Shown here in pieces: positions 16,166 through 64,000 of a DNA stretch of 64,000 bases. The notes under the pieces are model-generated. The model did no database searches. It saw only the letters and a program-made list of their open reading frames with translations, and was not told where the DNA came from. This stretch comes from Heterodontus francisci. Lineage: Eukaryota. A program made the translations under genes and the position numbers. The stretch's first letter is position 1; each line of letters opens with the position of its first letter. The stretch lies in the NCBI RefSeq assembly GCF_036365525.1, contig NC_090375.1:96474512-96538511 (forward strand), in the 5' to 3' direction.

Positions 16166-16991
16166 CCGCATGACGGCTCTCGAGCTGCGGATGGACTCAC
16201 TTTGGAGCATGCGCGATGCTGAGGAGGTCGTGGATAGCACGTTTAGTGAATTGGCCACACCGCAGATTAGGATTTCTGAGGGAGAAAGGGAATGGGTGAC
16301 CAAAAGGCAGAGAAAGAGCAGGAAGGCAGCGCAGGAGTCCCCTGCGGTCATCTCCCTCCAAAACAAGTATACCGTTTTGGATACCGTTGAGGGAGATGGC
16401 TCACCAGGGGAAGGCAGCAGTAGCCAGGTCCATGGCACCGTGGCTGGCTCTGCTGTTCAGAAGGGCGGGAAAAAGAGTGGAAGGGCTATAGTCGTAGGGG
16501 ATTCGATTGTAAGGGGAGTAGATAGGCGGTTCTGTGGTCGAAAACGAGGCTCCCGAATGGTATGTTGCCTCCCAGGTGCACGGGTCAGGGATGTCTCAGA
16601 TCGGCTGCAGAACATTCTAAAGGGGGAGGGTGAACAGCCAGTTGTCATTGTGCACATAGGCACTAATGATATAGGTAAAAAACGGGATGAGGTCCTACAA
16701 GCAGAGTTTAGGGAGTTAGGAGCCAAGTTAAAAAGTAGGACCTCAGAGGTAGTAATCTCAGGATTACTACCAGTGCCACGTGATAGTCAGAGTAAAAATG
16801 AAAGAATAGTCAGGATGAATGCGTGGCTTGAGAGATGGTGCAGGAAGGAGGGGTTCAGATTTTTGGGACATTGGGACCGGTTCTGGGGGAGGTGGGACTA
16901 TTACAAATTGGACGGTCTACACCTGGGCCGGACTGGAACCAATGTCCTTGGAGGTGCTTTTGCTAACGCTGTTGGGGAGGGTTTAAACTAA
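16166..16991 (+). CDS. CR1 ORF1p, SGNH/GDSL esterase domain (partial)
   Basis: Blocks VVGDSIV, CLPGA, HIGTND and DGLHL are all present; a coiled-coil-like segment precedes them. Confidence 0.9.
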
Positions 16992-19945: not shown

Positions 19946-20654
19946 AGAGAGGATCTGGATCGGCGCAGGCTTGGAGGGCCGAAGGGCCTGTTCCTGTGCT
20001 GTAATTATCTTTGTTCTTTGTTCTTTGTTCTTTGAAGGATGTTCTTGCTATAGACAGAGTGCAGCAAAGGTTTGCCAGACTGATCCCTGGGATGGCGGGA
20101 CTGACGTATGAGGAGAGATTGAGTCGGTTAGGATTATATTCGCTGGAGTTCAGAAGAATGAGGGGGGATCTCATAGAAACCTATAAAATTCTAACAGGAC
20201 TTGACAGGGTAGATGCAGGAAGGATGTTCCCAATGGTGGGGGAGTCCAGAACCAGTGTCATAGTCTAACGATACGGGGTAAACGTTTCAGGACTGAGATG
20301 AGGAGAAATTTCTTCACCCAGAGAGTGGTGAGCCAATGGAATTCGCTACCACAGAAAGCAGTTGAGGCCAAAACATTGTATGTTTTCAAGAAAGAGTTAA
20401 ATATAGCTGTTGGGGCGAAAGGGATCAAAGGATATGGGGGGATAAAACAGGTTACTGATTTGGATGATCAGCCATGATCATAATGAATGGCAGAGCAGGC
20501 TCAAAGGGCTGAATGGCCTACTCCTGCTCCTATTTTCTATGTTTCTATGTTCTCAGTCTGCTTCTATCTAATATGGAACTACTCCCATCTCTAGTCCTGT
20601 CCCACATTCTCACATTATGCAGCTTATTCCTCTTTTCTACTTCTATATGCTAGT

Positions 20655-20905
20655 GCCCATCCCGCTGCCAATTTAGTTTAAACCATCCCAAACCACCCTC
20701 GTGAACCTCTGCACAAGGACACCTGTCCCAGTCCTGTTGAGGTGCAACCCAATCTTTTTGAATAGGTGCCTTCCGCCCCAGAACTGGTCCCAATATCCCA
20801 AGAATCTTAAACCCTCCCTCCTGCACCATGCTTCAACCCATGCATTGATCCTCCCTATCTTCCTATTTCTACTCTCACTAGCACATGGCACTGGGAGTAA
20901 TATGG
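20655..20905 (-). mobile_element. CR1 ORF1 (esterase) C-terminal fragment
   Basis: LLPVPCASESRNRKIGRINAWVEAWCRREGLRFLG..GLHLN..GLN stop. Confidence 0.85.
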
Positions 20906-21469
20906 AGGCATGCACCATTTTGAAATGGGATGGTTGGACACTCAAAGGTCGAAATTACCCCCAATTTTTAAATTTTCCACTTAATGCCAGCATAAATTCC
21001 TCCAATGGATGAAATGCTAAGCAAAGTTCCCTTTGCAGCGATCCAATATTGCCAAGGCATCTCTTTGAAGCTGCTGCTTCCAACCCATTGTAACATCACT
21101 GCAAATGCAATGGAAATCTCAATTACATACCATTGACCTAGAAATTGGATCATGCTGTGCCACTTTATCGGCATAAAAACAGACACCTAAGATTCCATAT
21201 GGCAGCTAGTGTGTTGATGCGCATTTTGTGCCAAAAGTTCACCACCTGCCATTTTGGTAAAGACTCCTCAGTAGGTGTCCAGGGCACACACCAGAAACAG
21301 GCATTAGACCCTTTGCTTATGTACTAACCCGTTTATGAGGCCCCATTGCAAAATTATTTAGAACTACTATTTTTGTTGAAGTATATTTGCAAACTAGGAA
21401 TAAACAATCAGAGATACACAAACTTCAGATCCGGACCATTAAAAATATAATAGTATAAAAACTACTGAA

Positions 21470-22802
21470 GCTCTTGTTGGACTCCAACTGGAGTATTGTG
21501 TCTAGTTCTAGTCGCCACACTTTAGGAAGGATGTAAGGGTACAGAGGAGATTTACCAGAATGGTTCCAGCGATGGGGATTTTGGTCCTGGCAAGCTGGGC
21601 GCTGATGTAGACTGCGCATGCGCAGCACCATACTGACAGCAGGAGTCCGTTCTGTGCACGCGTAAAGCTGGGAGCACTCTGATGACGTCGGAGCTGGGCT
21701 GTGTTGCCAGCAGTCACTTTGTTTTACTTACAAGTTTAAGTTCGAAAAGCTGGTGTTGTACTTCTTGGAGCAAAGGAGATTGAAGGGAGATTTGATAGAG
21801 GTGTATAGATTATGACAGGCTTAGATAAGTTAGACAAGGAAAACTGATCCTATTAACTAATGGTACAAGCATTAGGGGACACAGACTGAAGATTTTGGAC
21901 AAGAGATGCAGGGGAAATGTGAGGAAGAACATTTTTTGCACAGTGGGTGGTAATGACCTGGAACTTGCTGCCCATGAGGGTGGTGGAAGTGGAATAATCG
22001 ATCATTTCAAAACAAATTGGTTGGGTGCTTGAAAGAAACAGACTGCAGGACTATAGGGATTGAGCGGGGGAGTGGTACTGACTGGATTGCTCCTTGGAGT
22101 GCTAACATGGACTCGATGGGCCGAATGGCCTCCTTCTCTGCCGTAAATGACTTTATGACTCTATGGGCTAGATTTTGTATGGTCCCCGACACCAGGAACG
22201 GTTGCGGGAGGGCATGAAGATCACTACAGATGAGGCCTGGTACTGACCCCGATGCAGGCAGGGTCCCGCCCGATCTCAACGGAGGTGGAGAGGCCTCATA
22301 GCGCCCCCCACCCACCCCCCCCACCCCCCCCCCCACCCCCCGCTTGGCGGCGGGACCACGATTTCCATATATAAATAAATTAACCTCTCTGAATTAATGA
22401 AGGTGCCATCGCCTCCTGATTTGCCTTTCCGATCTTCATCCTGGTGGCAGGCACTGCTGCGCCCTCGGATTCCCGTCTGGGGAAACGAGGCGCGACACCT
22501 GTGAGGAGGGGGGAGGAGATAAGTTTCGCCATGTGGGAGAGGGGGAGTGGGGTCAAACCTACCTGATTGGTCGAGGGTGTGATAGGAAGGGGTAAAGGAC
22601 AAAGGTTCTGAACTCTGTGGTGGGGGTGGGGGTGGGGGGGAAGGTCACCTAATCAAAGTAAGTACTTCGGGGGGTTGGGAAGGGCAGGAAAGACATGTAT
22701 TGATATTGGGAGGTTTCACTTGTCATTTAGGGCTGTAAGCCCTTTAAAAATGGCACTGGTGCACTGGCGCTGGATGCCGTTAAATTCAGCCCTATGACTC
22801 TG
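21470..22802 (+). mobile_element. CR1 3' fragment with a short internal insert (about 21583-21722) and a MITE in its tail
   Basis: caactggagtattgtgtc...; (ATGACTCT)n tail split by the MITE at 22165-22792. Confidence 0.8.
22165..22792. mobile_element. Non-autonomous TIR element (PIF/Harbinger-like MITE)
   Basis: TIRs GGGCTAGATTTT / TAAATTCAGCCC; exact 3-bp TSD TAT; GC-rich body similar to the copies at 38380 and 55619. Confidence 0.8.
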
Positions 22803-23091
22803 TACACACAGAGAAAAATTACCACCCAGCCATATTGCAAACAATACCATATCTCTCTTAATGAACTTAAGTCAGTAATCTAATCAAGCGATTTAATTGA
22901 TCAATATAACTACTTGGGTTTTACCTTTTACACCCTATGATGCTGTCTTAGCCCACTGAATGCATTACTGTCCTTTAATTTGCTGACAGAAGTCCAGTGT
23001 CTCTACTTGGTGGGTTCTGTGCTAATTATACATAGTGAAAGCAAGGCGGCCTATTTCTACTCCATTTTATACTTTGGTGTAGATTTCTTAC

Positions 23092-23213
23092 CTGATAATA
23101 CATATGAATCCTGTATCGTCTCACTTTTGCGGACAAGAAACAAGCCAACTTCTTGAGTGGAAGAAAGGAGATGGTTTTCTGCCTCGAATCGTGCCATTTT
23201 TCCACAATACCAG
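23092..23213 (-). CDS. PTK6: PTK6-family kinase exon 2 (N-terminal half of SH2), 122 bp; not in the ORF track
   Basis: ttcaatcatag| acceptor. C+TGG TAT TGT... reads (S)WYCGKMARFEAENHLLSSTQEVGLFLVRKSETIQDSYVLS with the FLVR motif. G|gtaag donor. Phases match exons 1 and 3. 122 bp matches human PTK6 exon 2 (from memory). Confidence 0.93.
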
Positions 23214-23904
23214 CTATGATTGAAATGAGTATGACATTTGATAAGCAGCGTAAGAGTTAACTTGCTGTTTTACAATGCAACAGGTTACTACATATAAATG
23301 GATTATTCGCTTTTGCACAGTTTGCAAATTTTCAGTGCACTGATGAAATCTACAACAAACTACAACTTGCAAAGTAGTATGAGAGATGTCCAGAAGATAT
23401 GGTGCTTATGCAGTTTTACCAATAAAGATATATCAATTCATATAAGAACACAACAAACCATAGAACAATGCCATTGGACCCAAAATACCTTTTCATTCAT
23501 AGATAATTTGCAAACTAACTGGTCATAGATTTATCTCTGAAACATAAACATTCTATAATCCTAATGTAATCAAGAGAAAACGCAAGATCTCCATTGAACT
23601 TGACACATACCTCCACAATTTATTATTAACTTAAACTCATGAGGTCACCCGATGAATCCAGATCAGAAAGGCCATTCAATCCATTTTAACTCATTCATTC
23701 AGAAAGACCTTACAGTCTCGCCAGTTTCCAAACACATTACTTAAATTACTGCAGGGTTTTTGATTCCACTACCTAACCAGAAGTCCATTTCATGTATTGA
23801 TCACTTGTTTGGGGTAGATTGTGACTTTGTCCAATATTGTAAATGGGTGATAGCAGTCAGCAGTCCATTTTACATCATCCTCAATTTTCATTTCCATTGA
23901 GAGC

Positions 23905-24548
23905 AATGGCTCTGCCCCTGCCTCAGTTCATCTGCTGCTGAAGCCCTCATCCATGCCTTTGTTGTCTTGAGACTTGACTATTCCAACACACACCTGGACA
24001 GCCTCCCATATCTACCCTCCGTAAACCTGAGGACATCCAAAACTCTGCTCCCTGTGACCTTACTCGTGCCAAGTCCTGTTCACCTAACACCCCAGTCCTT
24101 GCTGACTTAATTGGCTCCCTGTTAAGCAATGCCTCGATTTGAAAATTCTCATCCTTGTTTTCAAATCCCTCCATGGCCTTCCCCTCCCTACCTCTGTAAT
24201 CTTTTTCTGACCCACAACCCTCCGAAATATCTGAGCTCTTCTAATTCTCTTGAGCATCCCCAATTTTAATTGCTCTATCATCGGTGACCGTGCCTTTAGT
24301 TGCTAAAGCCCTAAGCTCTGGAATTCCCTTCCTAAACCTCTCTGCTTTCGTCCATTCCTAAACTTCTCTACCTTTCTTTCCTCCTTTAAGACACTCTCAA
24401 AAGCCACCGCTTTGACCAAGGTTTTGGTCATCTGCCCTAATTTCCTTATGCGCCTTGTTGTCATTTTTTTCTTAGTAACGTTCCTGTGAAGCACCTTGGG
24501 ATGTTTTATTATGTTAAAGGTGCTATAAAAATACAGGTTGTTGTTGTT
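23905..24548 (+). mobile_element. L2-like LINE 3' fragment
   Basis: ctcatccatgcctttgt..gacttgactattccaac (degraded LIHAFV.SRLDYSN); L2-type end ctgtgaagcaccttgggatg..aaaggtgctat with a (GTT)n tail. Confidence 0.78.
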
Positions 24549-25190
24549 GAGATGGATACTCCAGGCCAAAGTCCACTATCTACAACATCAAAGGGAAGTA
24601 ATTTAGTTTAAAAAATTAATGCTGTAAATATGAAATAACGACTGAAATTGCTGGAAATACACAAAAGGTTGATCAGTATCTGAAAGAGAAAGATAGTGCA
24701 CCATATCAATGTGACTCTTTAACCGAACCATTTACCAAAGAGCTGTGCCACGCTGTCATTCCTTTAGCAGATTATACCTACATCAGCACTACACTGATTA
24801 CTGCTGCTTAGACTGGACTTCCAAGTTCCTGAAGCTGTACCTCAGATTTCTATGTCAGTTCAGAATATCTTCACAGAATGCCACCATTTCTTTTGCTTGT
24901 GGCATTTCTGCCATACAATGTCATTACCTGGAATTCCCGGAGAGTGGGAAAGTCAGACACAGAGTTGACCGCCACTCGCTGTCAGTCGATTACTGGAGTT
25001 ACTATTAGACTATGGAAAATGTTGTGCACTTGTTAGCACCTCCACATGTTGCTTAGTTCTGAAAGGAATGGGAGGCTTAAAGCTGCCTCTGTTCACTCCT
25101 TGGTGCTGTGTGCTTAATTTCCAATGTAGTCCTTTCAACAGCACTTTATTAAAAAATTAAAAAAAATTTTAAGCTGGGAAGGCACACATA

Positions 25191-26760: not shown

Positions 26761-26899
26761 TGAGTTAGCTGATTTCAGCTGGTTTCAGCTGGTTGTATGA
26801 TATGAGTCTATATTTGGCCTTAACCTTCCTGGATTGCTACCAATTTCATGGTTCAAATGCAGCAGGTGAGATATTGTTTTACATGGGGTTAATACTCAC

Positions 26900-27372
26900 G
26901 ATTCTTCCTCCAAGCTCTTCTCTTTTGCAAGTATTTCGACAGGTACAAACCCAGAGCAGCAATTTTTGTGCTTGCATGATTCTCTAGAACCTTTCCAAAA
27001 TTTCTGAGTAAACCACCAATCCCCTTCTTTGCTGAGGATCTCCAGGCGCTCTCCTTTTCTCACGCTCAGCTCATCATGGGTCCTTGCCATATAATCAAAC
27101 TGTACTATATAAATCTCTGAGAAATGTGGAACTTCACTTCTGTCTTCCCTATTAATATCTGCATTTTCAGTACAACATGAGTTTTGTGCAGTCTGCTGAA
27201 CGGTGTTTGTTGCTGGGATGTGCAGTGGTCTAGCTTCGTGAGTACACTCTGCAGCTCCAGACCATTCATTTGTGGTCTGGCTTGTCAATCCTTGTGGCCT
27301 AACACTCTTCTCATCCTCCAAGGTGGAAAGATTTGCAGGATAGCTGAAACAACAACAGCATAGGACGGCCAT
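26900..27372 (-). CDS. PTK6: PTK6/BRK-family tyrosine kinase, coding exon 1 (unique N-terminus and SH3)
   Basis: ATG at 27372 in strong Kozak context (actATGg) with an upstream in-frame TAA. Encodes MAVLCCCCF...YIVQFDYMARTHDELSVRKGERLEILSKEGDWW...GFVP (SH3). Ends at TC|gtgagtat donor, phase 2. The symbol is a family-level call; it may be a divergent paralog. Confidence 0.88.
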
Positions 27373-27427
27373 AGTGCTGATGTGAATGAGTCTTTACAGC
27401 TCTTTGCCTTTGCAGAACTGCTTGTAC

Positions 27428-33827: not shown

Positions 33828-33938
33828 TTATTAACTTTGCTTCTCTCTCCACACATGCTGCCAGACTGCTGAGTATTTCCTGCACTTTTTATTTTTGTTT
33901 CAGATTTCCAGCATCTGCAGTATTTTGCTTTTATTTTA
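33828..33938. repeat. Penelope-like terminal repeat fragment
   Basis: Same sequence as 41375-41485 and 56704-56805 (..cagatttccagcatctgcagtattttgctttta). The Penelope assignment is inferred. Confidence 0.65.
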
Positions 33939-37635: not shown

Positions 37636-38379
37636 TGCTACATGGCCTTGAAGGTATAATCTGCCATATGGATGACATTTTAGTTCATGGAGAGTCCATA
37701 AGTGAACATAACCTAAGAGTTAGAGCAGTTTTGAAACATCTGCAGGACGAAGGACTAACACCCAATGAGAAGTGTGAGTTTTCAAAAAGTGCATTCATTT
37801 TTTAGGACGCATTGTCAGCTGTAGTGGCATAAAAGCAGACTCACAAAAGATGAGAGCCATCAGCAAATTTCCACTTCCTACTTCGATTCATGATTTTCAA
37901 CAGTTTCTTGGCATGGTCAATCAGCGGGCAAAATTCCTACCTAATTTAGCACTAGTTACTGAGTCTTTACCACAACGATTAAGAAAAGTTCAAGCATGCT
38001 AAGCTAGGATGCACATCAACAACAAGCATTTCAAAGGATCAAGCAGATGCTGATTTTGACGGATGTCTTTATAATCATTATAATCCATCACTTCCAACAA
38101 CTATTGTGGCTGACACCTCATTTTCAGGGATAGGGGCAGTCCTTTTCCAAGAACATCCAGATAGAAGTCGAAGACCTGTTTATTATGCGTCACAAGCATT
38201 GTTCACCACAGAGAAGAGATAAATCACAACAGAGAAAGAAGCTCTCGCAGTCACCTGCGCCTGTGAGAAGTTTTCAGACTACATTATAGGTTTAAAGATT
38301 GTCATAGAGACAGACCACAAACCCCTAGTTTCCTTACTTGATGAAAAAGAACTTGCTAAGATGCCTCCACGGATCCAGA

Positions 38380-39149
38380 GGGTTGAATTTTACTCACCCA
38401 CTCCCCCCCCCCCGCCAATGCTAGGGGGCATGGCGGCAGGGGGATGGGAAATGCCTCCAGGAGAGGCCCGCCACGGACCTTGATGCCGGGAAGTCCCGGC
38501 CCGATATTGCCAGTGGCTGAGAGGCCTGTGGCAGCCACTCCGCCGCTTTAAATTAATTAAAATGAATTCATTAATTACCATTACACTCCTGCCTTCTGTC
38601 CCGACTTGTGCCGGTGGCCGGTGCCCTCGCGCCTTTGGCTCCCCTGCTAGGGAATCGAGGCCGAACACTGGTGGGGAGGGAGGAGCAGGTAAATTTCTCA
38701 GTGTGGGGCGGGGTGGGGTCAAAGTCATATCACTGGTGTAGGGGATGGTGGGAAGGGTGAAAGTGTGAAGTTTATGCACTTTGGGGGGGGAAGGTTAGCT
38801 GGACAAGGTAAGTGTTTTGGGGGGCAAGTGAGGGCAAGTAATTAATTCTATGGTTATTGGGGGGGAAAGATAAATTTATTTAATTTTTTAAATCAATAGA
38901 TCGTTAAATATTTAAATTGAATGGCAGGTTTTGAAACCCTTTAAAAATGGCCTGCACACAGGTAGCTGACGCCATTGCTGGGGTGGACAGCCTGCCGCCT
39001 CCATGTCATTTGGGGGGGGGTGGTGGGGTGCGGTCCGCCCTGGCTAGCTAAATGAGCTGTTGCGCTTAATATCGCGGTGGCTCTGGAATGTGTGGCCCAC
39101 ATGGGCGGGCCGCCATTGTTTTCGGCGGCGGAAATATAAATTTCAGTCC
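38380..39149. mobile_element. PIF/Harbinger-like MITE interrupting Gypsy RNase H
   Basis: GGGTTGAATTTT / AAATTTCAGTCC; flanks aga/aaa; removing it restores PPRIQRFWLRLMRF. Confidence 0.82.
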
Positions 39150-39320: not shown

Positions 39321-41340
39321 TGTTGCATGACTGATTTAAGAGTGATGTCCCTTTGAGAACTCATCATGCTAATGAGCTAAGTATCAGGATTCAATCATGT
39401 GACTAAGACATAGTTACTCTGGAACTGTAACACCCTAGACAAAGGTTCTGCATATAGTTTGCTCTGTATTGTGTATACTAGTTTCGCTGTTAATAAACCT
39501 TTTAGAGATCTTCAAGGAACTGGAATCCTGTACCTCATTGTGTTGCTTATGATAACACTAAGAACGCATGGCATGGTGGCAACTGTGGTGAAAAGACAAG
39601 ATATAAGCTTGAAGACTCTGGTAAAACAGCAATCAAAATTTAAAAGCAGTACAGACAACAGAAGAGAAAATTTGAAGCAACAAGTGAAGACACTTTAAAA
39701 CAAGGACCTGAAAAGAGTGAAAGAAAGCTACATATCTTAGAAAGCTGAGAATCATAGAACGGAAGCGTGGCTGAGAGGCAAGCGATCAGGTGAGTCATTG
39801 TGCCGACGATCGAGAAATCCTGGTTTAAAAAAAAAGCCCTTGAAGAGTTTTAAAAAAAAAAAAATCATTTTCTAAAGGCTCCATGTAAGCCAGAGGGAAA
39901 AAAGGGGGGTAACCCTGAAAAGCACACAAACTTAAAAAAAACAAAGTCTGAGAGTGAAACAAAAGCACGAGAAACCCTGAACTCTGCAGAGTCTTCTTTA
40001 AAGCAGTCAAGCTGAATAAATCATTAAACCAGTCAAGCGTGAAGAACATAGATAAATGCTAGCAAAAAAAAAGCAATGGGGAAAGCCCTTGAACTGCCTA
40101 TTGAATAGCTGTGTAAACATACAAACTGAAGTGCTCAAAGTAAAATAAAGAGAGAACACTGTCAAGTACCTGTTGCACTCTATCAAAGGATCTAATCAAC
40201 AAAGGGAATTTCTTAAAGGAGGAACAGCACAGAGTTAATCGAACAAGTTTTAAAACCAGTTTCAATCCACAAATAGAAAAGTCATGATAAGTACAGTGCT
40301 GAAGACATACACAGAGCTGAATAAAGTTAAATATAGAGCAGAAAGCAAAAGAACAGCAGAAAGATGCAAATCAAATTCCCCAGCATGAAGTGGAAGACCA
40401 TTATTAACGGAGTTCAAACTTTTTAAACAAAGAATGCAGTTTTGCTTCACAGACCAAGCAGTTGTAGAACCAGAGAAGCAGGCTACTGATAGCAGTTGGA
40501 AATGATGGATTATACAGAATCAATACCTTTGGCTTATCTGAAGAGGGCCAGAAAGATCCCGCAAAGATACAGAAAGTGCTAGAAGATCAGCTTCGTGTAA
40601 GACTGAATTTTAGAATTCATCACCTGAAATTGATGTCCTACAGGCAACAGTCACAGGAATCAATAGATCAATTCATCAGTAAATGCCTTATTAAGGACAC
40701 CAAAAGTGACTTTTCAGAAACTGAGCTGTTGGACCGAATAATGGAGCTGGTGATTGTCTCAACACTTTTTGAAGCATTTCAGAACGGCCTCTTGGGAAAA
40801 AAGAAAGGTCACAGCATTGATGCACTGCTTGAAAATGGCAGGAAACATGAATCCATTGTAGCTGGATAACAGCATCTGCAAGCATTAGGTGCAACTGACA
40901 GTATTGGCACAATAACCAGGTTGCAAACAGCAAGCGGGCTGTGTGGAAAGTGTGGTTTGTCCCACTCACCATGAAGTTGTCCTGCATTTCAAGACCTGTG
41001 CAAGGCGTGCAGTGAAAAAGGACACTGAGCCCGGCTACGCAAGAAATCTGGCTCCAAAGATGCAGCCAGAAGTCATAATAGGACACAAACAAACAGAAAA
41101 CAGGTGCAGCAACAGAGAAACAGCAGCAAGGAGAGCACCAGAGACCTGTCTAAAAGTAAGATGATACACGACGTCCACAGTGAAATAGTCCCGAAATAAG
41201 GCACAGAGTGGAGCAATTCTCAGCCAGAAGATGAGCAGGCGTTTCACATTGTGAACCTGACACATTGTGTACCTGACACATTGTGTTGATGAAGTCAAAC
41301 AACTGGAAGATTTTGCTACTAATAACATCATTTACCCAAA
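39321..41340 (+). mobile_element. Gypsy family B 5' part (LTR, PBS, gag remnant) nested in family A
   Basis: TGTTGCA-starting LTR with AATAAA; tggtggcaactgtgg PBS-like motif at about 39574; gag LRVRLNFRIHHLKLMSYRQ..DRIMELVI; zinc-knuckle remnant CGKCG..H..CP. Confidence 0.72.
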
Positions 41341-41485
41341 GAACAGTTCTGAAGAAGGGTCACTGACCTGAAACATTAACTCTGCTTCTCTCTCCACAGA
41401 TGCTGCCAGACCTGATGAGTATTTCCAGCATTTCTTGTTTTTATTTCGGATTTCCAGCATCCGCAGTATTTTGCTTTTATTTTAG
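41341..41485 (+). repeat. Penelope-like terminal repeat with a minimal hammerhead motif
   Basis: AGTT-CTGAAGA-A-GGGTC-ACT-GACCT-GAAAC-ATT-AACT at 41345-41381. Confidence 0.65.
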
Positions 41486-44400
41486 AGTTGTGAAGCCTCC
41501 TGACCAGAATTAATCTATGAAGTCAGAGACTTGGGCGGAGATAGGGTAGTATGTAAATTTAAAGTGAATGTATGTAAATATGTATCGGGATAAAGACGAG
41601 GAGGTAGATGTAGTATAAGGGTCTGAAAGGGTTAATCTTGAGAGTGTTTAAAGAACACCTTCCACCATGATGATGTAAGAGATCACATGTGAGAGAGACT
41701 TAAAGAAGATGCAGCATGCTTTTGGTGGAGTCCCACAGACTGACGTGAAGATGGATATAGTTCTAATAGAATAAATATCAATGTGCTAACGAACTAACAA
41801 GACTGAGGTATTTCAATCAGTTAGGCTAAGTAAGATGGCAGCGTACCAAAGCAACATACAACACTGCTTGCCTTCATCTTTCCTTGTTCAGAATGAAGTA
41901 TATTCTTTACTGTGGGAAACTTGGAGAGATGATGACTGGGCAGGGTAGTTCTTACCTGCCTTCCAAACATCTACTCTACAGGCGACGGTAAGCTCATGTC
42001 CGATGGAGTAACCTGGAGGTGCAGCATTGCAACCTTGAGATATTGTCCCATCTGCCAACACTTCAAATTTAGCAATTTGATGGGGAACACAATGCATTCA
42101 GCCATGCCGTTGGACATTGGATAATGCGACGATGATGTCCTGTGACAGACCCCAACCTGGCACATATGTCTTGGAATGGTCTACTTGCAGGTTGCAGCCC
42201 ATTATCGGAGATAATTTCTTCTGACATGCCAAATAGGTTGAACAGAGCACTGACTGTATTAGCAACCACTGCACTTGACGTATTTTGTAGCTGTCTGATA
42301 TTCGGAAACTTGGTGAAGTAATCCATAACAAGAAAGAAATCATCACCTTGAATGTGAAATAAATCTGTGCCAATCTTCACCCATGGATGTGAAAGTGTTT
42401 CATGTGGAATCAAGGGTTCCTTCTGTTATTTGGCTGACAATTTTGGCATTCCTTACAGGATTTCACCAGCGTCTCAACATCACTGTTGATACCTGGCCAG
42501 CAGACCGTCTCTCTGGCAAGACGTCTGGTACATTTTATTCCTAAATGCCCTTGATGCAGTTGAATTAGAATATCAGAATGCAGAGCTTCGGGTATCAGGA
42601 CTTGTTTTCCTTTGAAATTCACCCCTTGTGATATACCAAGCCTGTCTCGATACGGCCGGAAACAGCGTAGATGTTTGGTTACTTCCTGTATGGTCCCAGG
42701 CCATCCTTCCACAATCACCTCCCAACTATGATAGGGTAGGGTCACGTACTGTCTCATCTCTTAGTTGCTCACATTTGTGGAGTCCAAAACTCATGGGGTT
42801 GATCTTCAGGACATTCTCAATCTCAGTATCCACACTGTGGACATGCAAATCTAGTGAGACATCTGCATTTTTATTTGGGTTAGGCAACCGGCTCAGGGTG
42901 TCTGATGTGACCATTTTTCTGCCTGGTTTATACTGGGTGTCACAATCCTAGCCCTGGACCTTCACCAAAAGTCTCTACAACCGTGGAGGAGCACTCGTAA
43001 GCTGTTTGTGCCAGGTGGTTTCAAGTGACTTGTGGTCAGTCTCCATGGTAAAATGTTTTCCGAACAGGTAGGTGTGAAACTTAACGATACCAAAAACCAG
43101 AGCTAAGGTTTCATGTGCGATGTTAGAGTAATTGGATTGGGTTTGCAAAAAACTCTTTGCGAAGGCGATTAGGTGCATAATCCCTTCTGGGAGGCATTGC
43201 CCTGGAGCAGGGTCTCTTTGGTCAGGTTGTAATACAGTAGCACACTGTCTTGATTTGACAGAGCTAACTTTAAGGACTCAAACACCTGCTGGTGGTCGTC
43301 CTGCCACAAGTAAGGGGTATCTGTTCGCAGCAGTTCCCTAGGCGGTGCTGCTCGCTCAGCGAAATTGGGGATCTACGGGGCCCAAATGTTGAACACACTG
43401 TGGTAGGTCTTCCCAGTCCTGAGGAGTTGGCATGGCTCTGATATCTTCGGGCTGGGCGTATTCCCGTGGCAGAATATACGACCCAAAGAAGTTGATGTGC
43501 CCAACGTTGATCTGGCACTTCTTGCTATTAAACACAAGGCTCTCATGATGAGCAGCCAGCATTAGCAAATGCATGTTTCAATCATGCTCTGCCTTGATAC
43601 ACTGTACAGATACAGCCCTGGACATTTTCTGTTATCCTGTTCATGTATTGTTGGAAAATGTCCTGGGTGACGCACAGACCAATCGGTAACTGTCTGAAAT
43701 AGTATCTGCCGAATGGTGTTCTAGCTGAGATATCTTGGCTAAGTTGACAGACCAGTAGCCATGCTTCACATTGAGCTATGAAAATTACAGTTAACTTAGG
43801 ATTCAACTGCTCCAGGGTCGGGATTTTATGCGAGCATGATCTTATTGAATGATGGAGGGGCTGAATGGCCTATTTCTGCTCCTAAGTTCTTTGTTCGTAT
43901 GTTCGTATCTCTTGAGGGCTAAATTTAGTTGTCGCGGGTCCAAGTAGATCCTGAGATTGCCCTCTTTCTTCAGCACATAGGTAATGGAGCTGCACCAATT
44001 GGAATGCTGGTGCACTCTGCGATGACTCCATTACGCTCCATCTCATCCAGCTCCACTTTAAGCTTTGCTTGAATATGCATGCTGCACTTCCTTGGTGCGT
44101 CGATAGTAGGAATTGCATCTTCCCTCACGTGCAATATGGCATCACCCTTGAAATCGCTGATTGCATCAAACCTGTCTGGGTAGTTTCAGATCTCTAACTG
44201 ACTCAATGCACTCCGTGTTGCAACCTTTCGGTGCGATGCTGTATTGTGATTATTCATAAATCTTGGCACACCTTAAGTCCTGCGACAGCTGGTCCAGTTG
44301 TGTTTACAATATAAAACATTTGCGGTAGCCATTCGGAGCTCCCAAAGCTGCATGGCAAAGTTACCGTTCCAATGTACTTGATTGGAGAACAATTGTAGAC

Positions 44401-53388: not shown

Positions 53389-54317
53389 TGTTACAACCAG
53401 GTGAGAAAGGTGTCCAGGGATCTTTTATTGTCTTCACCTGGTCTTATTGTAACAGGGTTTAATTTTAAATACACCGTGTTTTGAGCTCCCCCTTTGGTGA
53501 CCATCCTTGTTCACTACTTTCCAATTATAAGGCAAAGAAATGACCATCAGCAGGCTTTCTTGGGTTTAAAGAAGAAAAGTGAAACTTATTAAACTTAAAC
53601 TTAATCTCTGATACAGTTAACACCTACGGATATACGACTCTAGCATGCACATGTGATACACACATGCAAATAGGGACAGAAAAGAGCAGAAGAAAAATAA
53701 AATGGAGAGGTTTGAGACAATATCAGAAGAGTTTCTTGTTTACTGTGCTTTGAGCTCACTGTAGTCCTTTTGTAAGTAGTCTTGCTTTTTGTTGGGGCCC
53801 AATATTCTTCTTAAAACTTGTTCACTGTAGGAGACTTTTCTCTCTTAGGGTTCATGTGTCTTCAATGGTTTCCAAAGCTTGTGAGAAAGAGATGGGAGCA
53901 GACAGGAGAGAGGTCTTCTCAGTCCAGCAGAAAAGTGCTTACCGATTTCAAATTCCTTGTTGGAATTTCAAATTCAAAAAACTTCAAGTCAGCCAGCCGT
54001 GTGTCCAAACTGGTCCGACCACGTGTGTTTGTGTATTCGTCCATTTTAGCAGTTAACCTGGAATGCTAGCCTTTCCACCTTCAATGTCTGGTAATCAAAA
54101 GTCCATTGTGGATTAAATTGGAGCAGCGAATAGCCCCTTTGTTCTTTGAAGTACTGTCTGTCGACATGCTAATATCCAGCCAAAGGCTCCAATTGTTTTT
54201 TTTAAAGCAAGTTCTTTCTTCACCAACAACTGTTTAGAATCAATGTTCATCTGGCAAAATTAATTTTCCTCATTCTTGGCAGGTGGTGGGGGGGGTGGTG
54301 GGGGTGCTTGCCTGACA
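53389..54317 (-). mobile_element. Solo LTR (7529 family, inverted)
   Basis: TGTTAC...TGACA termini; flanks ctct/ctat; colinear with the reverse complement of 7529-8359. Confidence 0.85.
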
Positions 54318-56572
54318 CTATTTTATTGCTTGACTTCAGTGTGGCTGGGGTTGGATAAAGGGTGGAAAACAATGCAGCGTAAAATAGGGTGGGGTGTAAA
54401 ACAAGCACCTGACCCATGTCACCAGGCACCTATGTTAAAAGGATAGCTAGTATCCTTGTTCCAAAAATATCTTGAACAATTTTCTGCCAGAGGTGATGGC
54501 ATCTGGCTTATTACAGGGGACTGTTTATAAATAATATTTAAATGATGTCGTCACATCAAGGGCTCGATTTCTCTCTCACTGGTAGTTTACTGGTTGGCCT
54601 GCCCACCTAATACTGCTGGAAATCCACATAATGTTTCTGGAGGGAGCCTCATTCGATAGACTGGGCAGGATTCTAGCTCCTGACTGCTTCTTTATCACTG
54701 AGATGGAGAAGCATGCAATCCAGCTGCAGCATTTAAATGGTTGTTGCTTATTAAAAGGCTTGTAGCTCTTGAATTGGAGGAAGTGAGGAAAAAGATGTAA
54801 GACCCTCTCCCTGTTCTAAAGGTTCTCGCCTTTACTCTGGGTATCAATGGCACACAACAACTTGGATACTGTTCCACTAGATGTGGTACACTTTATTATC
54901 CCACTAAGCAATGGTACATACTCAAGATAATACTGGTTGCTTAGCAGCTGCGTGAGCTGGAGTCCATCTCGGTGGCCAATCCGCCGACAAATCTTCCATG
55001 TGCGACTTCCGGATGGCCGACCTCGCCACCCTAACCACTGAAGCAAAGATGTTCCTGTGGACTCTTTCTTTATACCTTTTTTTAGTTATGGCTCTGTTCT
55101 ATATGAGGTAAAGCCTGTCTTTAACTCCTTTAATTGGTCTGCAATTACCTCACTGTCTTTTGGAAAAACAAGGTATATGGCTACAGGCACGGGTCGCACG
55201 TAGAAATTTCAAGGCCCACTGCTTCAGATAACAAAGACAGTTTCTCTGCTATGCTATCTCTAGCACGTTATCAATATTGAGACTGAAACAGACATTTTCT
55301 TATGCTCTTAATGAGCAAGGCCTGAATCTCTTCCCAGATGCTCGCATGTTTGCAGTTTAATTATTTTTGCTGACCTTGCTAATTCAGACAAGGCTCTGTC
55401 ATGACCAGAATTGCCCACCTTCCCATGCATTTTCAAGCCCACAATACAGTTCATTCGATGCATTTGGTCTGGGTACTCCGATGCTCCATGTAGTCACAAT
55501 GAGACAGACTACACACACACTGGATTTCACCACAACTGATCTACATTCATGAATACAAAAGAAATAAAGGAAAAGTTACATGGTTAAAAAGTGATTGTAC
55601 ATGAAAAGGTAAAATAATGGGCTGAATTTTACAGCTCCCCCTGACATCAGGGGTCGTGGCGGGGGGCTGGAAAATGCCTCCGGAGAAGGCCCACCATGGG
55701 CCTCGAGGCCGGGAAGGCCCAGCCCAATATTGCCAGCGGGGATGAGACCTCGTGGCGGCCACCCCGGCGCTCGGTGGTAGAAGCCAAATAAGCATATTTT
55801 AAATTACTGAGTAAATGACCTAACCGCTCCCATGTTTTTGGTGCCGGTGGCCGGCACTCCTGTGCCTTCAGGTCCCCATCTGGGGATCCGAGGTGGGACA
55901 CAGGTGGGGAGGGGGAGCAGATAAGTTTTTCAGTGGGGGGTGGGGAGCGGCATCAGAGTGTAGGGGATGGCGGAAAGGGGTAAAGTTTAAAGTTTCTGAA
56001 CTTGGTGGGGGGGAAGGTCAGGTGCACAAGGTAAGTGTTTTGTGGAGGGAGAGGGCAGGTAATTATTTCCATGGTTATTTGGTGGGGGGTGGGGGGTGGG
56101 AGAGGGTCAGGATCAATTTATTTAATTTTTTAATTTCACTGTCGCTTTAAATATTCAGATTAAATGGAAGGGTTCAAAGCCCTTTAAAAACGGCATCAGC
56201 ACCTGCACAAAGGCTGCTGACACCATTGCCGGGGACAGAATGCCCGCCCCCTCCACATCATCGGTCCGCCCTGACCATTTAAATGAGCCGTCACGCTGAA
56301 TATCGCAAATGTAAACTGCAGCCTGTTATGACCAAGGCGGGAGTAATGCGCTGTTAATTCCGTCCCACTACTGCACGGGTCATAGCATATTAGTAAAGTT
56401 TCCCACCTACTGGAAAATAGCCAAATTAAACACTCTATTTGTCCACCCAGAATAAAGCACACCAAACCAGGTTTCTTTAAACAACAACAAAATGAACTAT
56501 GTATTAATAACTTAAGTCTTAAACAATAATGAGATAACCCTCATGCACACAAACATACATAAAAAAAGTTAA

Positions 56573-56805
56573 TATAAAAACAAGAAATGCTGGAATCACT
56601 CAGCAGGTCTGGCAGCATCTGTGGAAAGAGAAGCAGAGTTAACGTTTCGGGTCAGTGACCCTTCTTCGGAACTGTTCCGAAGAAGGGTCACTGACCCGAA
56701 ACGTTAACTCTGCTTCTCTTTCCACAGATGCTGCCAGACCTGCTGAGTGATTCCAGCATTTCTTGTTTTTATTTCAGATTTCCAGCATCCGCAGTATTTT
56801 GCTTT
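56573..56805. mobile_element. Palindromic Penelope-like mini-element with hammerhead motifs
   Basis: Perfect inverted repeat 56574-56672 / 56674-56772 with a 1-nt spacer; exact 17-bp TSD tacataaaaaaagttaa (56556-56572 and 56806-56822). Confidence 0.85.
56674..56709 (+). ncRNA. Candidate minimal type I hammerhead ribozyme (mirror copy on the minus strand at about 56637-56673)
   Basis: GTT-CCGAAGA-A-GGGTC(ACT)GACCC-GAAAC-GTT-AAC: core with U4C, extra A after A9, 5-bp helix II, palindromic ACGU in place of helix III. Confidence 0.55.
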
Positions 56806-59065
56806 TACATAAAAAAAGTTAACTGGTTTTTAAAAGGATGTTTTGGATTACAACTGTTTCTTAGGAATAATAAAATAATTAGGTTGTTACATTCTGGTAG
56901 AATATTTCTGGGTCAGTGAGATGTCCCAGAGTTGAATAGTCAGATGCCACAGTAAGTCTCTCTAGGTGAGGTTGATGAACAGTCTGTGATGGGTAGGCAT
57001 TCACGGCACTTCATCTGCAGCAGACGTCACACATATCTTTCAGCAAAGGGTGTAGCAACAGCTCCATTTTAGTTTTGAAATAGCAGTCTAGCAATAGAAG
57101 CTTATTTGAACTTTCAGGATCTCCCAAAACATAAGAGGCCACAGGAATCATTCCTAAGGCAGAGATTTTTCAGAGATTGGAGGCAATAGGCACCGGTTAC
57201 CTTTAAAATGCAGGACTTCCTCTCAGCAAAGGAGCCTTTCTCCACAGAGAGCAGCATCTTCTCTTTTCCTGGGTGTCTTCCTCTCCAGGGGTCTTTTCTC
57301 TCTCCAGGCAGACCACAGCCACTATCTCAAATGTAGTATTTCTTTTTACAAGAGAGGCAAGCATTCTATCTCAGGGAGAGGTCTTTTTTCTCTGGTCTGC
57401 AAAAACACAGGTTCCAACCAGTTTTTTCTGCCTCCTGCCTGTCCAGTTCACTGGTCTTTTACAATGCAGAGGTGAAACTGAAACGCTAACAATCAAGTCA
57501 TGTGACCTGTCATTTCCCTTTCTGTTGTTTGGAACAGGTGTCTTGCAGTCAGTTCAAACACCAAGTTTCAGCATTCAATGTTCACATAAAATCCTTTTCT
57601 CTCAGTCTTTTCAAAACACAGAATTCCAAGCTTTCAAAATAAAAAAAACCCACTTGTGACAAGCCCAATCTATTGGCTTACACAGAAATAGGCTTACAGT
57701 GGCAGAAAGAGTAGCAGCATCAGGGGGGCTACACAGTGGTCCATATGGTATTTAAGGCCCTGTAGAATGTTTGACATAGTTCTTTGGAATATTTCTGGTG
57801 CTGGTGTTATACTGAATGGAATAACGAAGGTTGTCAATAGCCTTGACTTCTTAGTCAATGGAACTTGCCAAAGCCACTATTCATGTCAAGTTTTGTGAAC
57901 ATGGTACTTTTGGATTACTTTGCCAAGTTTTCATCTACTGAGGACATCGGATGAACTTCTCTTGCCACAGCCTTATTAAGTTAATTATGCACAAATGCAT
58001 AGAGAACTGTTAGGTTTAGGAACTGGAAACATTTCCGAACACCACTCTGTAGGTTCAGTGACAGGAGAAATGATTCCCATTCTGGTAATTTCTTCTAACT
58101 GATGTTGGACTTGCTTCATTAGTTGGTGTGGTATCTTCCCAGGCATGAAAAGACATGTAGGTTTAACGCCTTTTCTCAAAGCAATGTTGTATTCGGTCTT
58201 CAGTCTTCCTAGACCAGTAAATAATTTTGAAAAGTCTTTTTGGAAGTGACTCCTGGATTCTTGTTGCTTAACTTCTTCCACTTTTCTTATAAGATGAAGG
58301 TCAATACAAGCTCTTCTACTTAAGAGAATTCCTCTGCTTTCCCTTGTACTGGAGTATTATCTGTAGCTTTCCCTTGATTTTCAGTGCAATCCCTCCTGGG
58401 CCATGTAACTGAGTTTCTGTTGGTTGCAGGTAACCGTGATAACCACGGTTCATTACTTAATAAGACCATTATACTTGCTCCAGTGTCTAGTTTAAAATAG
58501 GTGATATGTCCGTTGACATATATATCTACAGACCAAAATGCCTGATTAGGATCATTGATCTCACCAAGGAAGTTTTCTGATTTACCTCCTGATGGAGATT
58601 GTTCAACTTCATTAACAGCACTATGCTTGAAGACTTTTTTTTTGAACTTGTGGGAGTAGAGATTTTAACTATGGCACATCTTCACAAAATGGCCTATTTT
58701 CTTACAGTGGAAGCATTCTGATTTGTCTGCAGGACACTATTCATGCTTGTGGGTCTTTCTGGCACCAAAGCACTGACAGGGTTTCATGGCATCTTGCACT
58801 CTGCACCCCCACCCCCCGCCCCCCTTCCCCACCTCACTGTACCTTCTTTTCTGGTGCTTCTTTTACTGCCCTGTGATTAAGGAACTGTATGGTCACTGGA
58901 CGTTTCCTGAACCAAGGTCTTTCTTCACCTCTCAGGATTGTTCTGTTCTTCTTCCAGGACTCTGTTTGTCTCGCCAGCTGTATTGCTTTGTCTGGGGTGA
59001 GTTCTTCCTTAGACTGCAATAAATCTGATAGGGATTCATCAGCTATACTTACTGCAATGTGGTCT

Positions 59066-59135
59066 CTAATAAAAGCAAAATACTGCAGATGCTGGAAATC
59101 TGAAATAAAAACAAGAGATGCTGGAAATACTCAGT
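59066..59135. repeat. Penelope-like terminal repeat fragment, opposite orientation
   Basis: taataaaagcaaaatactgcagatgctggaaatctgaaataaaaacaagagatgctgg. Confidence 0.65.
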
Positions 59136-59159
59136 AGGTGAGCAGTACAGTAGCCTGCC

Positions 59160-61113
59160 ATTTGGAAAATGACCCATTTATCCCTACTCTTTGTTTCCTG
59201 TCTGCCAACCAATATTCTATCCATCGCAATACACTACCCCAATCCCATGAGCTTTAATTTTACATGCTAATCTCTTAAGTGGGACTTTGTTGAAAGCCTT
59301 CTGACAATCCAAATAAACCACATCCACTGGCTCCCCCTCATCAACTCTACTGGTTGCATCCTTGAAGAATTCTAGTAGATTTGTCAAGCATGATTTCCCT
59401 TTTGTAAATCCATGCTGACTCTGCCCGATTCTACCACTGTTCTCTGCTATAAAATTTCTGATAATGGACTCGAGAACTTTCCCCACTACCGACGTCAGGC
59501 TGACTGGTCTATAATTCCCTGCTTTCTCTCTACCTCCCTTTTTAAATAGTGGGGTTGCATTAGCTACCCTCCAATCTGTAGGAACTGTTCCAGAGTCTAC
59601 AGAATCTTGGAAGATGACCACCAATGCATCCACTATTTCTAGGGCCACTTCCTTAAGTACTCTGGGATGCATATCATCAGGCCCTGGCGATTTATCGGCC
59701 TTCAATCCCATCAATTTCCCCAACACCATTTCTCTACTCATCCTGATTTCCTTCAGTTCCTCTCTCTCACTAAGCCCTGTGTTCTGCAACATTTCTGGTA
59801 TGATATTTGTGTCCTCCGTTATGAAGACAGAACCAAAGTATGCATTTAGTTGGCCAGCCATTTCTTTGTTCCCCATAATAAATTCCCCTGTTTCTGACTG
59901 TAAGGGACCTACATTTGTCTTCACCAATCTTTTTCTCTTCACATACCGATAGAAACTTTTACAGTCAGTTTTTATGTTCCCCGCAAGCTTGCTCTCGTAC
60001 TCTATTTTCCCCTTCTTAATCAATCCCTTGGTCCTCCTTTGCAGAATTCTAAACTGCTCCCAATCCTCCGGTCTGTTGTTTTTCCTGGCAAATTTATATG
60101 CCTCTTCCTTGGATCTTTTGTTATCTCTAATTTCCCTTGTAAGCCATGGTTTGGCTACCTTTCCCGTTTTACTTTTTTTTTTATTTCCAAAATATACTTT
60201 ATTCATAAAAATCTGTAAAAATTACATTGCCAAACAGTTTCCAAACAGCACCAAAAAATACAAACATTGCAAGGGAGATCAGTTTCCTTCAATACCGTCA
60301 TGAGTTTCTTCCCAACCCTTCTGTTTCACAATTGTCATGTCAATTACAGTTTTACATTTACAGCAATTGAGAATATTAACGATACAGTTCAAGGGGTTTC
60401 CCATTGATCCAGCCCCTCAGTCCATCTTGGCGGGGGAACCTTACACTGTGGTCTTTCCCCATTGAGCCTTTGCTGCGGCTGCCCCAAGCTTTAGTGCGTC
60501 CCTCAGCACGTAGTCCTGGACCTTGGAATGTGCCAGTCTGCAACATTCGGTGGTGGACAACTCTTTGCGCTGGAAGACCAGCAAGTTTCGGGCAGACCAA
60601 AGGGCGTCTTTCACCGAATTGATCGTCCTCCAGCAGCAGTTGATGTTTGTCTCGGTGTGCGTCCCTGGGAACAGCCCGTAGAGCACAGACTCCTGTGTTA
60701 CAGAGCTGCTTGGGATGAACCTTGACAAAAACCACTGCATCTCTTTCCACACCTGCTTTGCAAAGGCACATTCCAGGAGGAGGTGGGCGGCACCGTTCTA
60801 CTTTTGTGCCAGACAGGGATAAGCAATGGTTGCGATTCATCCATGCGCTCTTTAAATGTTTGCCATTGCCTATCCACTGTCAGCCCTTTAAGTAACGTTT
60901 CCCAATCCGTCATAGCCAACTCGCGCCTCATACCTTTGTAGTTTCCTTTACTAAGATTCAGGACCCTAGTCTCAGATCAACTACGTCACTCTCCATCTTG
61001 ATGAAGAATTCTATCATATTATGGTGGCTCATCCCCAAGGGGTCTCGCACCACTAGATTGTTAATTATTCCTCTCTCATTACACAATACCCAGTCTAGGA
61101 TGGCCTGTTCTCT
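59160..61113 (-). mobile_element. CR1 ORF2 internal fragment, same subfamily as the 12730 element
   Basis: ORF 59217-60206 is nearly identical to the 14620-15580 translation (KADKSPGPD..LKEVALEIVDALVVIFQDS). Confidence 0.92.
60177..60792 (-). mobile_element. Tx1/L1-group LINE 3' fragment inserted into the CR1
   Basis: AHLLLECAFAKQVWKE..LWSARN C-terminus; AATAAA plus poly(A); 13-bp TSD ccgttttactttt/ccgttctactttt. Confidence 0.85.
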
Positions 61114-62090: not shown

Positions 62091-63237
62091 CTACCTTCTG
62101 GATTGCTGCTGTAAACTGAACCTTTATTATCGATTCCCTCTAGTGGCACACCGTGCATGCTACACAAAGCATGTATGGTGGCTTCAAATGAACAATACAC
62201 CACATTTCAAATGAACAATAAATGAAAAATACACTACATCCCTCCCCTTCTTGGTAAATGAGAGTTTCAATAGTTTCCTTACATTGTTCTCTTTGGACAT
62301 TACTTCAGTTTGTAACATAATCACCTAAGTATGGTTGACGTTTCCGCTCATGAGTAGGATATCGATGTATGACATCAAGTGTTGTCTCTTGCTTCATCTG
62401 AAATGTCAATGTCTGGATTGGACACAACGCTGGTGGATGGTGTTTGCAACATTTTGAAGAATGACTCGTTTTGTGTGATGATTTGTGAACCACACTTAGC
62501 AGTGATCAGTAAACCTTTCTTGTTGGTCACAACATATGGCTGGATGTCATGGGGGTTGTTTGCTTTCCAACATAACCATCACAATTTACAAGCATTTTGT
62601 CTCCTGTCTTTAGCGGTGTAGTTCTGAATTTCAGTTTTACTCTGCGTTTGCTTTCATGCAATCTTTCTGTTCTTGATCACGCTCATGTGCGTGTTGATCA
62701 TTCGCTTTGCAGGGTAGATCGGGAAGACATGTGTGCATTGGATGTGTGAAGATGAGTATAGCTGGAGGCTTTCCAGTGGTCGAGTGAGGAGCCGCTCTGC
62801 AATTGAGAAGAAAACGAAACAACTCCTGCTTCCACAACTTGCTCTCAGCAGTTGCTGTACAGATCACAGTTTCAAGTTACGCGTGAATCTCTCAACTCCT
62901 CCATTAGCTCTTAGCCAACAGGATGTGATATTTCGCTGAGTGAAACCCAGGTAATTTGCAAATTTACTGAACTCATTGTTGTTGAATGGGGTCCATTGTT
63001 GCTTCTCACTGTTTGAGGGACTCCAAACCAAGCAAAAATCTTGTCAAACTTTGAGGTGACTGCTTTTGCTGAGGTAGACGTAACTGTTTCTGTGACTGGG
63101 AATCTGCTGTAATTGTCAGTGACAAGAGAAAAGTGCTCATCAGTGGGCAAGTCTGCAAAGTCTACACTAGCTTCAGTCCAGGGGCCTTCAGGCAGCTCAG
63201 GCATGTTGAGTGGCTCACAAAGATTTGATGTTGTGGT
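62091..63237 (-). mobile_element. Gypsy family C integrase remnant, PPT and partial 3' LTR
   Basis: PEGPWTEASVDF..DNYSRFP..FGVPQTVRSNNGP; PPT aagaaggggaggga (62252-62239) abuts TGTAG at 62238. Confidence 0.8.
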
Positions 63238-64000
63238 TTTTTTATTCTTTCATGGGATTTGGGCTTGGCCAGCATTTATTGCCCATCCCTAATTGCCCTT
63301 GAGAAGATGATGAACTACCTTTTTGAATAGCTGCAGTCATGTGGTGTAGGTACACCCACAGTGCTGTTAGGAAGGGAGTTCCAGGATTTTGACCCAATGA
63401 TGATGAAGAAACAATGATATAGTTCCAAGTCAGGATGGTGTGTGACTTGGAGGGGAACTTGCAGGTGGTGGTGTTTCCATGCATTTGCTGCCCTTGTCCT
63501 TCTAGTTGGCAGAGGTCGGGGGTTTGGAAGGTGCTGTCTAAGGAGCCTTGGTGCATTGCTGCAATGCATCTTGTAGATGGTACACACTGCTGCCACTGTG
63601 CGTCGGTGGTGGAGGGAGTGAATGTTTGTAGATGGGGTGCCAATCAAGCGGGCTGCTTTGTCCTGGATGGTGTCGAGCTTCTTGAGAGTTGTTGGAGCTG
63701 CACCCATCCAGGCAAGTGGAAAGTATTCCATCACACTCCTGACTTGTGCCTTGTAGATGGTGGACAGGCTTTGGGAAGTCAGGAGGTGAGTTACTCGCCT
63801 CAGGATTCCTAGCCTCTGACCTGCTCTTATTGCCACGGTATTTATATGGCTAGTCCAGTTCAATTTCTGGTCCACAGTAATCCCTAGGATGTTGATAGTG
63901 GGGGATTCAGCGATGGTAATGCTGTTGAATGTCAAGGGGAGATGGTTAGATTCTCTCTTGTTGGAGATGGTCATTGCCTGGCACTTGTGTGGCGCGAATT
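63237..64000 (-). mobile_element. 3' part of a third copy of the tRNA-headed LINE family (runs off the window)
   Basis: ORF 63315-63974 YKAQVRSVMEYFPLAWMGAAPTTLKKLDTIQDKAARLI; same 3' tail as 53275-53349. Confidence 0.9.

Follow-up and report, generated by a model that had tools for sequence, protein, structure and literature searches.

The insertion at 56556–56822 in a 64,000-nucleotide stretch of the shark Heterodontus francisci (contig NC_090375.1, forward-strand positions 96,474,512 to 96,538,511; the window) is likely to be a dead-on-arrival, heavily 5′-truncated insertion of a Penelope-like element (PLE), in which two 3′ ends of a pseudo-long terminal repeat (pLTR) stand head-to-head, one of them with a tail, inside a target site duplication (TSD). 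We hold the assignment to the PLE class, with a hammerhead ribozyme carried as a passenger, a little more firmly than this full description. It is well supported that the insertion behaves as a PLE insertion, and its membership of that class rests on its structure together with the hammerhead motif. The repeat is very abundant and this copy of it largely ordinary; the sole lead that is not routine is a hint that fold-backs favour the 5′ edge of the hammerhead as their turning point.

Structure of the insertion and its repeat family

A palindrome search of the window shows two arms, at 56574–56672 and 56674–56772, that are perfectly complementary over 99 bp about a centre T at 56673, and among the best 20 window entries listed this is the only palindrome with arms of at least 12 bp. 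The insert (56573–56805) is 233 nt long and lies between exact copies of the 17-bp TSD TACATAAAAAAAGTTAA, at 56556–56572 and 56806–56822, in which 15 of the 17 positions are A or T, indicating an AT-rich target. Just one other window locus has an exact 17-mer repeat within 300 bp, a tandem duplication near 9574–9632, where a 19-bp exact direct repeat occurs in copies 40 bp apart. A single extra T at 56573, either an untemplated base or a substitution, separates the left TSD from the short arm; 150 of 276 reads have an A there. The short arm carries the sense repeat unit on the minus strand and ends on the inner 3′ end of the family, and the centre base belongs with it, being native to the family only as part of that arm. 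The long arm carries the same 99 nt in sense on the plus strand, and is followed by a 33-nt tail (56773–56805, plus strand), present on one arm only, that ends on the outer 3′ end of the family. An earlier note on this DNA had described a perfect palindrome with 99-bp arms centred on 56673, a 33-bp unique end, and a 17-bp TSD, and these coordinates are exact. It had also proposed that the insertion is recent. There are no mismatches at 116 paired sites, which gives a 95% upper limit of 2.5% divergence; the insertion is thus young among repeats, its age being bounded by that limit and not necessarily recent in years.

Four public sequencing runs were mapped to positions 56350–57010 (661 bp) at 86% likeness, among them raw reads from a capture library (X14, the source of all read counts given here), contigs (X1), and data from a second organism (X12), which also contains the family. 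Of 11,989,820 X14 reads, 50,772 map to the 661-bp stretch, nearly all of them on the element, with a depth of about 12,000–24,000 there and about 40–400 on the flanks; because this is a capture library, copy number cannot be taken from the depth. A further data set, X6, consists of contigs that may derive from RNA, and as such carries no information on expression. At 56674, two sets of reads (2,608 and 7,187; agreement 0.63 and 0.78) depart from the reference and run on into a single upstream sequence that is conserved, with the same consensus in X12. These 9,795 reads show that each arm is part of a longer repeat that has lost its 5′ portion. Allowing up to two mismatches, the window holds no copy of the upstream family motif. 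At the other side, reads leave the element at an inner 3′ end at 56773 (1,608 reads; 892 at the mirror position, 56576) and at an outer one at 56806 and 56807 (2,798 and 10,230 reads), and beyond both lie unrelated flanks (agreement 0.36–0.46), with no conserved continuation past a few letters at the outer end. These family ends are about 33 nt apart and coincide with the short-arm and long-arm ends of the insertion. At each of positions 56697, 56720, 56749, and 56750 some 43–50% of the reads have no alternative letter, and 4,407 mapped reads are at least 99% alike to the insertion; the shared letters and the near-identical reads point to a large young subfamily, such that these letters are not private to the insertion.

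The window contains four further copies, 72–94% identical to the insertion, with differing start points; three of them stop at the tail end. The copy at 41341–41479 (plus strand) is older, matches at 124 of 132 nt, has a CUGA hammerhead core and a 5-bp inverted stub around 41345, and starts at the same point as the arms of the insertion. Two shorter 5′-truncated copies with tails lie at 33831–33933 (plus strand) and 59068–59139 (minus strand), and an old diverged copy, 72% identical over 75 nt, at 24619–24690 (minus strand). A 9-bp direct repeat, ATGAAGTCA, is present at 41289–41297 and 41517–41525, some distance from the ends of the 41341–41479 copy, and is either the TSD of a larger insert or a chance match.

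The long arm and tail include an ATG-started open frame of 26 codons (56728–56805, plus strand) that follows a pyrimidine tract and a CAG, and which may be the first codons of the parent open reading frame (ORF). We also note that 56704–56730 resembles a splice acceptor, with a branch-point-like TTAAC, the pyrimidine tract, and the CAG ahead of the ATG. The peptide of the unit matches predicted proteins of Scyliorhinus torazame and H. francisci (the two species named among 10 matches checked), and its presence in both sharks argues that the family is chondrichthyan. Most of the 31 peptide matches in a representative library are short predicted ORFs running across copies of the repeat; two of the matches, P0009 and P0028, look like low-complexity chance matches, and the best ESM Atlas score for the arm peptide, 0.79, is uninformative. 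The shark gene models P0006 and P0008 contain the repeat peptide, and annotation pipelines may thus exonise the repeat. Two short family motifs have no match in metagenome, prokaryote-genome, or viral contigs, nor in phages. Our searches of the open-access literature listed no description of this shark family, although repeat libraries may hold it.

The insertion shows four features seen in PLE insertions: 5′ truncation of a longer terminal repeat, as shown by the upstream reads and the varied starts of the window copies; a tail within the 30–40-nt range, with two 3′ ends, 56773 and 56806/7; an inverted 5′-truncated copy in head-to-head orientation, found in the insertion and at no fewer than 10 other junctions; and a TSD at an AT-rich target. 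Inverted 5′-truncated copies with a 30–40-bp tail are described in PLE insertions (PMC8557442), as are inverted pLTRs with a 31-bp tail and TSDs of 8–10 bp in a rotifer PLE, in which head-to-head repeats with palindromic junctions are abundant and are interpreted as self-priming (PMC3846280); repeats of 34–37 bp, very short truncated insertions, and inverted pLTRs are also reported (PMC2377424, PMC9977147, PMC8969392). With the complex insertions of endonuclease-containing PLEs (Penelope/Poseidon and Neptune; PMC3846280, PMC8557442, PMC2377424) the insertion shares the palindromic head-to-head junction, the one-sided 30–40-nt tail, the TSD, the strong 5′ truncation, and the AT-rich target, but it differs in lacking any ORF and in comprising only 99 + 132 nt. 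The Poseidon protein of Anolis carolinensis (PAc), a predicted dimer, nicks AT-rich targets on both strands and extends each strand, with reverse transcription beginning at two internal sites that bound the tail, and hammerhead cleavage is not needed for insertion in vitro (PMC11167929). PAc and the insertion both have a hammerhead near an ATG and two 3′ ends bounding a downstream tail, and in both cases both target strands are used; the PAc start codon, however, lies 26 nt before the cut site, whereas the candidate ATG in the insertion lies 22 nt after it (PMC11167929).

The earlier note had favoured a retrozyme-like derivative of a Penelope element. The Penelope-type origin, and a true insertion with a TSD, are borne out by structure and motif, and the retrozyme-like part is not. 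Animal non-LTR retrozymes are likewise non-coding, related to PLEs, and furnished with type I hammerheads, but they are described as head-to-tail tandem units with at least two hammerheads on the same strand (bioRxiv 10.64898/2026.07.22.740005); the insertion is a head-to-head pair with one motif on each strand, and its unit is a truncated piece of a longer repeat.

Hammerhead motifs and predicted folding

A minimal-hammerhead descriptor following the published consensus (core C[CT]GANGAH, helix II, GAAA-NN-UH, and a helix I of at least 3 bp) matches the window at 56677 (plus strand), 56669 (minus strand), and 41349 (plus strand) only, and matches nothing in each of 60 shuffles. Both palindrome motifs read CCGAAGAA, with a C at core position 4 (U4C), and thus depart from the CUGANGAH core, which is present in the 41349 motif, the sole match when a strict CUGA core is demanded. 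Both have a G-C closed helix II, the GAAA, a palindromic 15.2/16.2, the UH, and a helix I, and they agree with the published consensus for PLE minimal hammerheads except at U4. The plus-strand motif (56674–56708) has a 3-bp helix I, a 5-bp helix II, and a predicted cut after 56705, and the mirror motif (56637–56673, minus strand) has a 4-bp helix I and a predicted cut between 56641 and 56640. A minimal type I hammerhead on each strand with ACGU in place of helix III, as well as a cut after GUU at 56705, had been proposed beforehand and agree with these results, with the lengths of helix I corrected to those given here. We note that at both TSD edges (56572–56573 and 56822–56823) the end of the TSD and the next base form GTTAAC, a hexamer also present where the hammerhead is predicted to cut; the match is probably a chance one in AT-rich DNA.

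Minimal hammerheads are reported in pLTRs, mostly as truncated single copies and in some cases as close pairs on opposite strands, with no cleavage by the monomer and weak cleavage by the dimer (PMC4209133). Features shared with these include a U-rich upstream sequence, a helix I of 3–4 bp, an extra base after A9, a G-C closed helix II, and GAAA-CG-UU. The opposite-strand pairs are 100–700 bp apart, whereas the two motifs of the insertion abut and carry U4C, and the alignment rows of Fig. S3 of that paper that were compared include no cartilaginous fish (PMC4209133). The suggestion that U4C weakens the ribozyme agrees with a report that this change considerably lowers activity in vitro, yet is tolerated in a viroid (PMC3088659); the passages of PMC3376415 consulted hold nothing on U4C.

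A read-through transcript of the palindrome is predicted to form a single hairpin of −198 kcal/mol (z −26.7), and folds constrained to contain a hammerhead lie 55.6 kcal/mol (plus strand) and 55.9 kcal/mol (minus strand) above it. The hammerhead and the double-stranded RNA (dsRNA) had been regarded as alternative folds, but at these energies their stabilities are not comparable. On either strand the antisense arm is transcribed ahead of the sense motif, and because the motifs are on opposite strands there is one sense hammerhead per transcript and hence no dimer in cis. With a perfect complement made first and a cost of about 56 kcal/mol, the hammerheads are probably inert passengers, trapped in the 99-bp hairpin. 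The monomer motifs fold no better than their shuffles (z −0.5 to +0.2), as is expected because the motif is so small. It is physically plausible that the palindrome, if transcribed, would be a dsRNA substrate for Dicer or ADAR.

Helix II varies within the family, with the G-C pair at its base replaced by G-U in the 41341–41479 copy and in about half of the X14 reads, and a weak X1 consensus (agreement 0.45) suggests an A-U pair in another subfamily. All three arm CpGs read TpG or CpA in the 41341–41479 copy, and three of its eight differences from the insertion are of this CpG type; the U4 there may therefore itself be a product of decay. An origin of U4C by ADAR editing was weighed and set aside, since CpG decay in the older copy explains three of the eight differences equally well.

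A possible route of formation

Twin priming followed by snap-back could have produced the insertion, and we put the likelihood of this route somewhat short of even. The element endonuclease would nick both strands of the AT-rich target, 17 nt apart, and each free 3′ end would prime cDNA synthesis on element RNA, with an inner start and an outer start 33 nt apart. Read inward from each copy of the TSD, both arms are antisense (as is cDNA) and begin from the two family 3′ ends, an arrangement that priming from both nicks would give. A pair of antisense cDNAs is unable to hybridise, and the simplest way of supplying a sense end is snap-back: the short-arm cDNA would run two bases past the 5′ edge of the hammerhead, fold back at C-T-G, and copy itself, and the new sense-strand end would anneal to the long-arm cDNA, with repair fixing a perfect palindrome. 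In the twin priming of L1 elements there is also priming from both nicks, which inverts adjacent, not identical, segments.

The base at the fold bears on this route. Immediately upstream of the fold the family reads C, A, both in the loose-end consensus at 56674 and at 41344–41345. T56673 is therefore native to the short arm and not to the long arm, contrary to what would be expected had the long-arm cDNA simply folded back. The 41341–41479 copy has the native centre on its long arm together with four further non-native inverted bases, and this stub resembles a snap-back that started at the same position and was aborted. Among the 27 joint rows listed from two tables, which hold 420 and 259 more, at least 18 distinct joints cross the palindrome centre. 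The junction letters are known for 10 of the 18 listed; one of these has its symmetry at a different position, with a single base separating the sides, also at C-W-G, in copies with a T at 56697, the rest are asymmetric, and four of the 10 have an arm end within 3 nt of 56673. An asymmetric joint, 56661 to 56720, has 3 nt of microhomology and is found in an X1 contig of depth 507 (flank contigs, 6–11) and in eight X14 reads from eight starts; it may be recurrent or amplified, although the depth is not a copy number. In one X1 contig 56567 is linked to 56841 across 23 letters, the length that remains once the insert and one TSD are subtracted, and because these letters differ from the window sequence the contig is probably a paralogous flank without the insert, rather than an allele.

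Several observations weigh against a PLE insertion formed in this way. The snap-back step depends on one base in one copy; the evidence for the fold point comprises three cases, and a loop of a single base would be under strain. Possible alternatives to snap-back are that two cDNAs halted at a shared position were joined through microhomology, or that antisense self-priming took place (PMC3846280). For the other eight of the 18 listed joints the letters between the sides could not be read, the mapping was at 86% likeness, and copies folded exactly at 56673 yield no joint and so are uncounted. The 17-bp TSD is longer than the 8–10 bp of the rotifer PLE (PMC3846280), and the three other window copies tested have no clear TSD. 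The public runs show no empty allele of the locus, and none of the contigs listed spans it. An Rfam search of 54000–59500 (E up to 10), a check that the earlier note had proposed for the ribozyme, gave 14 weak matches with no hammerhead model among them. Linkage to the single ORF with GIY-YIG and reverse transcriptase (RT) domains that defines endonuclease-containing PLEs, which the same note had also suggested looking for, was not obtained: there is no GIY-YIG domain in the 150 longest of the 203 window ORFs of at least 75 aa, none of the 31 peptide matches has an RT or GIY-YIG domain, and longer proteins have no scoring match to the arm peptide. Separately, the Rfam matches to mir-5928, mir-350, and 23S-methyl are sub-threshold and hairpin-driven and were discarded as fold artefacts.

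A self-propagating, non-autonomous fold-back unit, which would be transcribed as an entire palindrome, cut by its own hammerheads, and returned to the genome by PLE proteins, would account for the common start point and inverted stub of the 41341–41479 copy and for the four of 10 junctions with an arm end near the centre, and the depth of the 56661 to 56720 joint indicates that some fold-backs may be multi-copy. We nonetheless consider it improbable, as some 9,800 X14 reads continue into native upstream sequence and the junctions vary, both outer ends are the two 3′ ends of the family, as expected of fresh priming, and the motifs are on opposite strands, trapped, and altered by U4C. Hairpin-forming DNA can be homogenised, and a plain truncated insertion might have become palindromic later by DNA-level fold-back repair or intrastrand conversion, consistent with the perfect identity of the arms and the one-base centre; both arms, however, lie within the TSD, the short arm stops at the inner 3′ end of the family and not at the end of the tail or within the flank, and the centre base is family-native yet absent from the long arm, all of which make this very improbable. 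We give an equally small chance to a short interspersed nuclear element (SINE)-like repeat that is not PLE-derived and was mobilised by a long interspersed nuclear element (LINE) with L1-style twin priming. A 17-bp TSD suits LINE integration, LINE RTs are abundant in the window, and no PLE ORF is linked, but the window has no tRNA gene, the repeat has no poly(A) or tandem 3′ end, a BLAST comparison of the unit with the window gave no match to a LINE end, and the hammerhead, the tail, and the head-to-head duplication of the same 3′ segment are together a PLE signature. An assembly artefact from a chimeric fold-back read or a misjoined repeat could be suspected in data without long reads and with no listed contig across the stretch, but it has the slightest chance of all in view of the exact TSD, the one-arm tail that matches the family ends, the family-native centre base, the comparable junctions that raw reads show for other copies, and the probable paralogous empty site.

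On the preferred account, a truncated PLE insertion made by twin priming and snap-back, the insertion would be a clean minimal record of PLE integration, with two nicks, two RT starts, and one junction, and it bears on the final integration steps that the cited papers leave unresolved. A broader proposal, which we consider doubtful, is that symmetric fold-backs form by this route at preferred points (here a C-W-G on the 5′ side of hammerhead helix I, at its edge, with stalling of the cDNA there), and that some of them re-amplify as units, possibly in a subfamily with a U4C master. If so, the many thousands of such miniature insertions would allow the last steps of PLE integration to be studied from natural material, in which the centre base tells which cDNA folded back. 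Young perfect hairpins, if many of them are located in transcribed regions, would also supply endogenous dsRNA in this lineage.

Other features of the window

The flank of the insertion is itself repetitive by read depth (56324–57661), and its TGT..ACA ends, each bordered by AGCC, suggest that the target was a solo LTR some 1.09 kb long; this identity is unproven, as the scanned space holds three TGT..ACA pairs flanked by 4-bp repeats. LINEs of the AP-endonuclease type abound in the window, including a young-looking one at 15984–19945 (plus strand) with GDSL-esterase, AP-endonuclease, and RT domains, the long frame of which is broken by a stop near 18190 and which is nested among older similar LINEs. 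Decayed pieces of LTR retrotransposons (RNase H, integrase zinc finger, and integrase core) lie at 38223–38480 (plus strand), 42072–43277 (minus strand), and 62914–63249 (minus strand). An exon-like frame at 26899–27393 (minus strand) encodes an SH3 domain (Pfam SH3_1, E 4e-9), and may be the first exon of a Src-related kinase.

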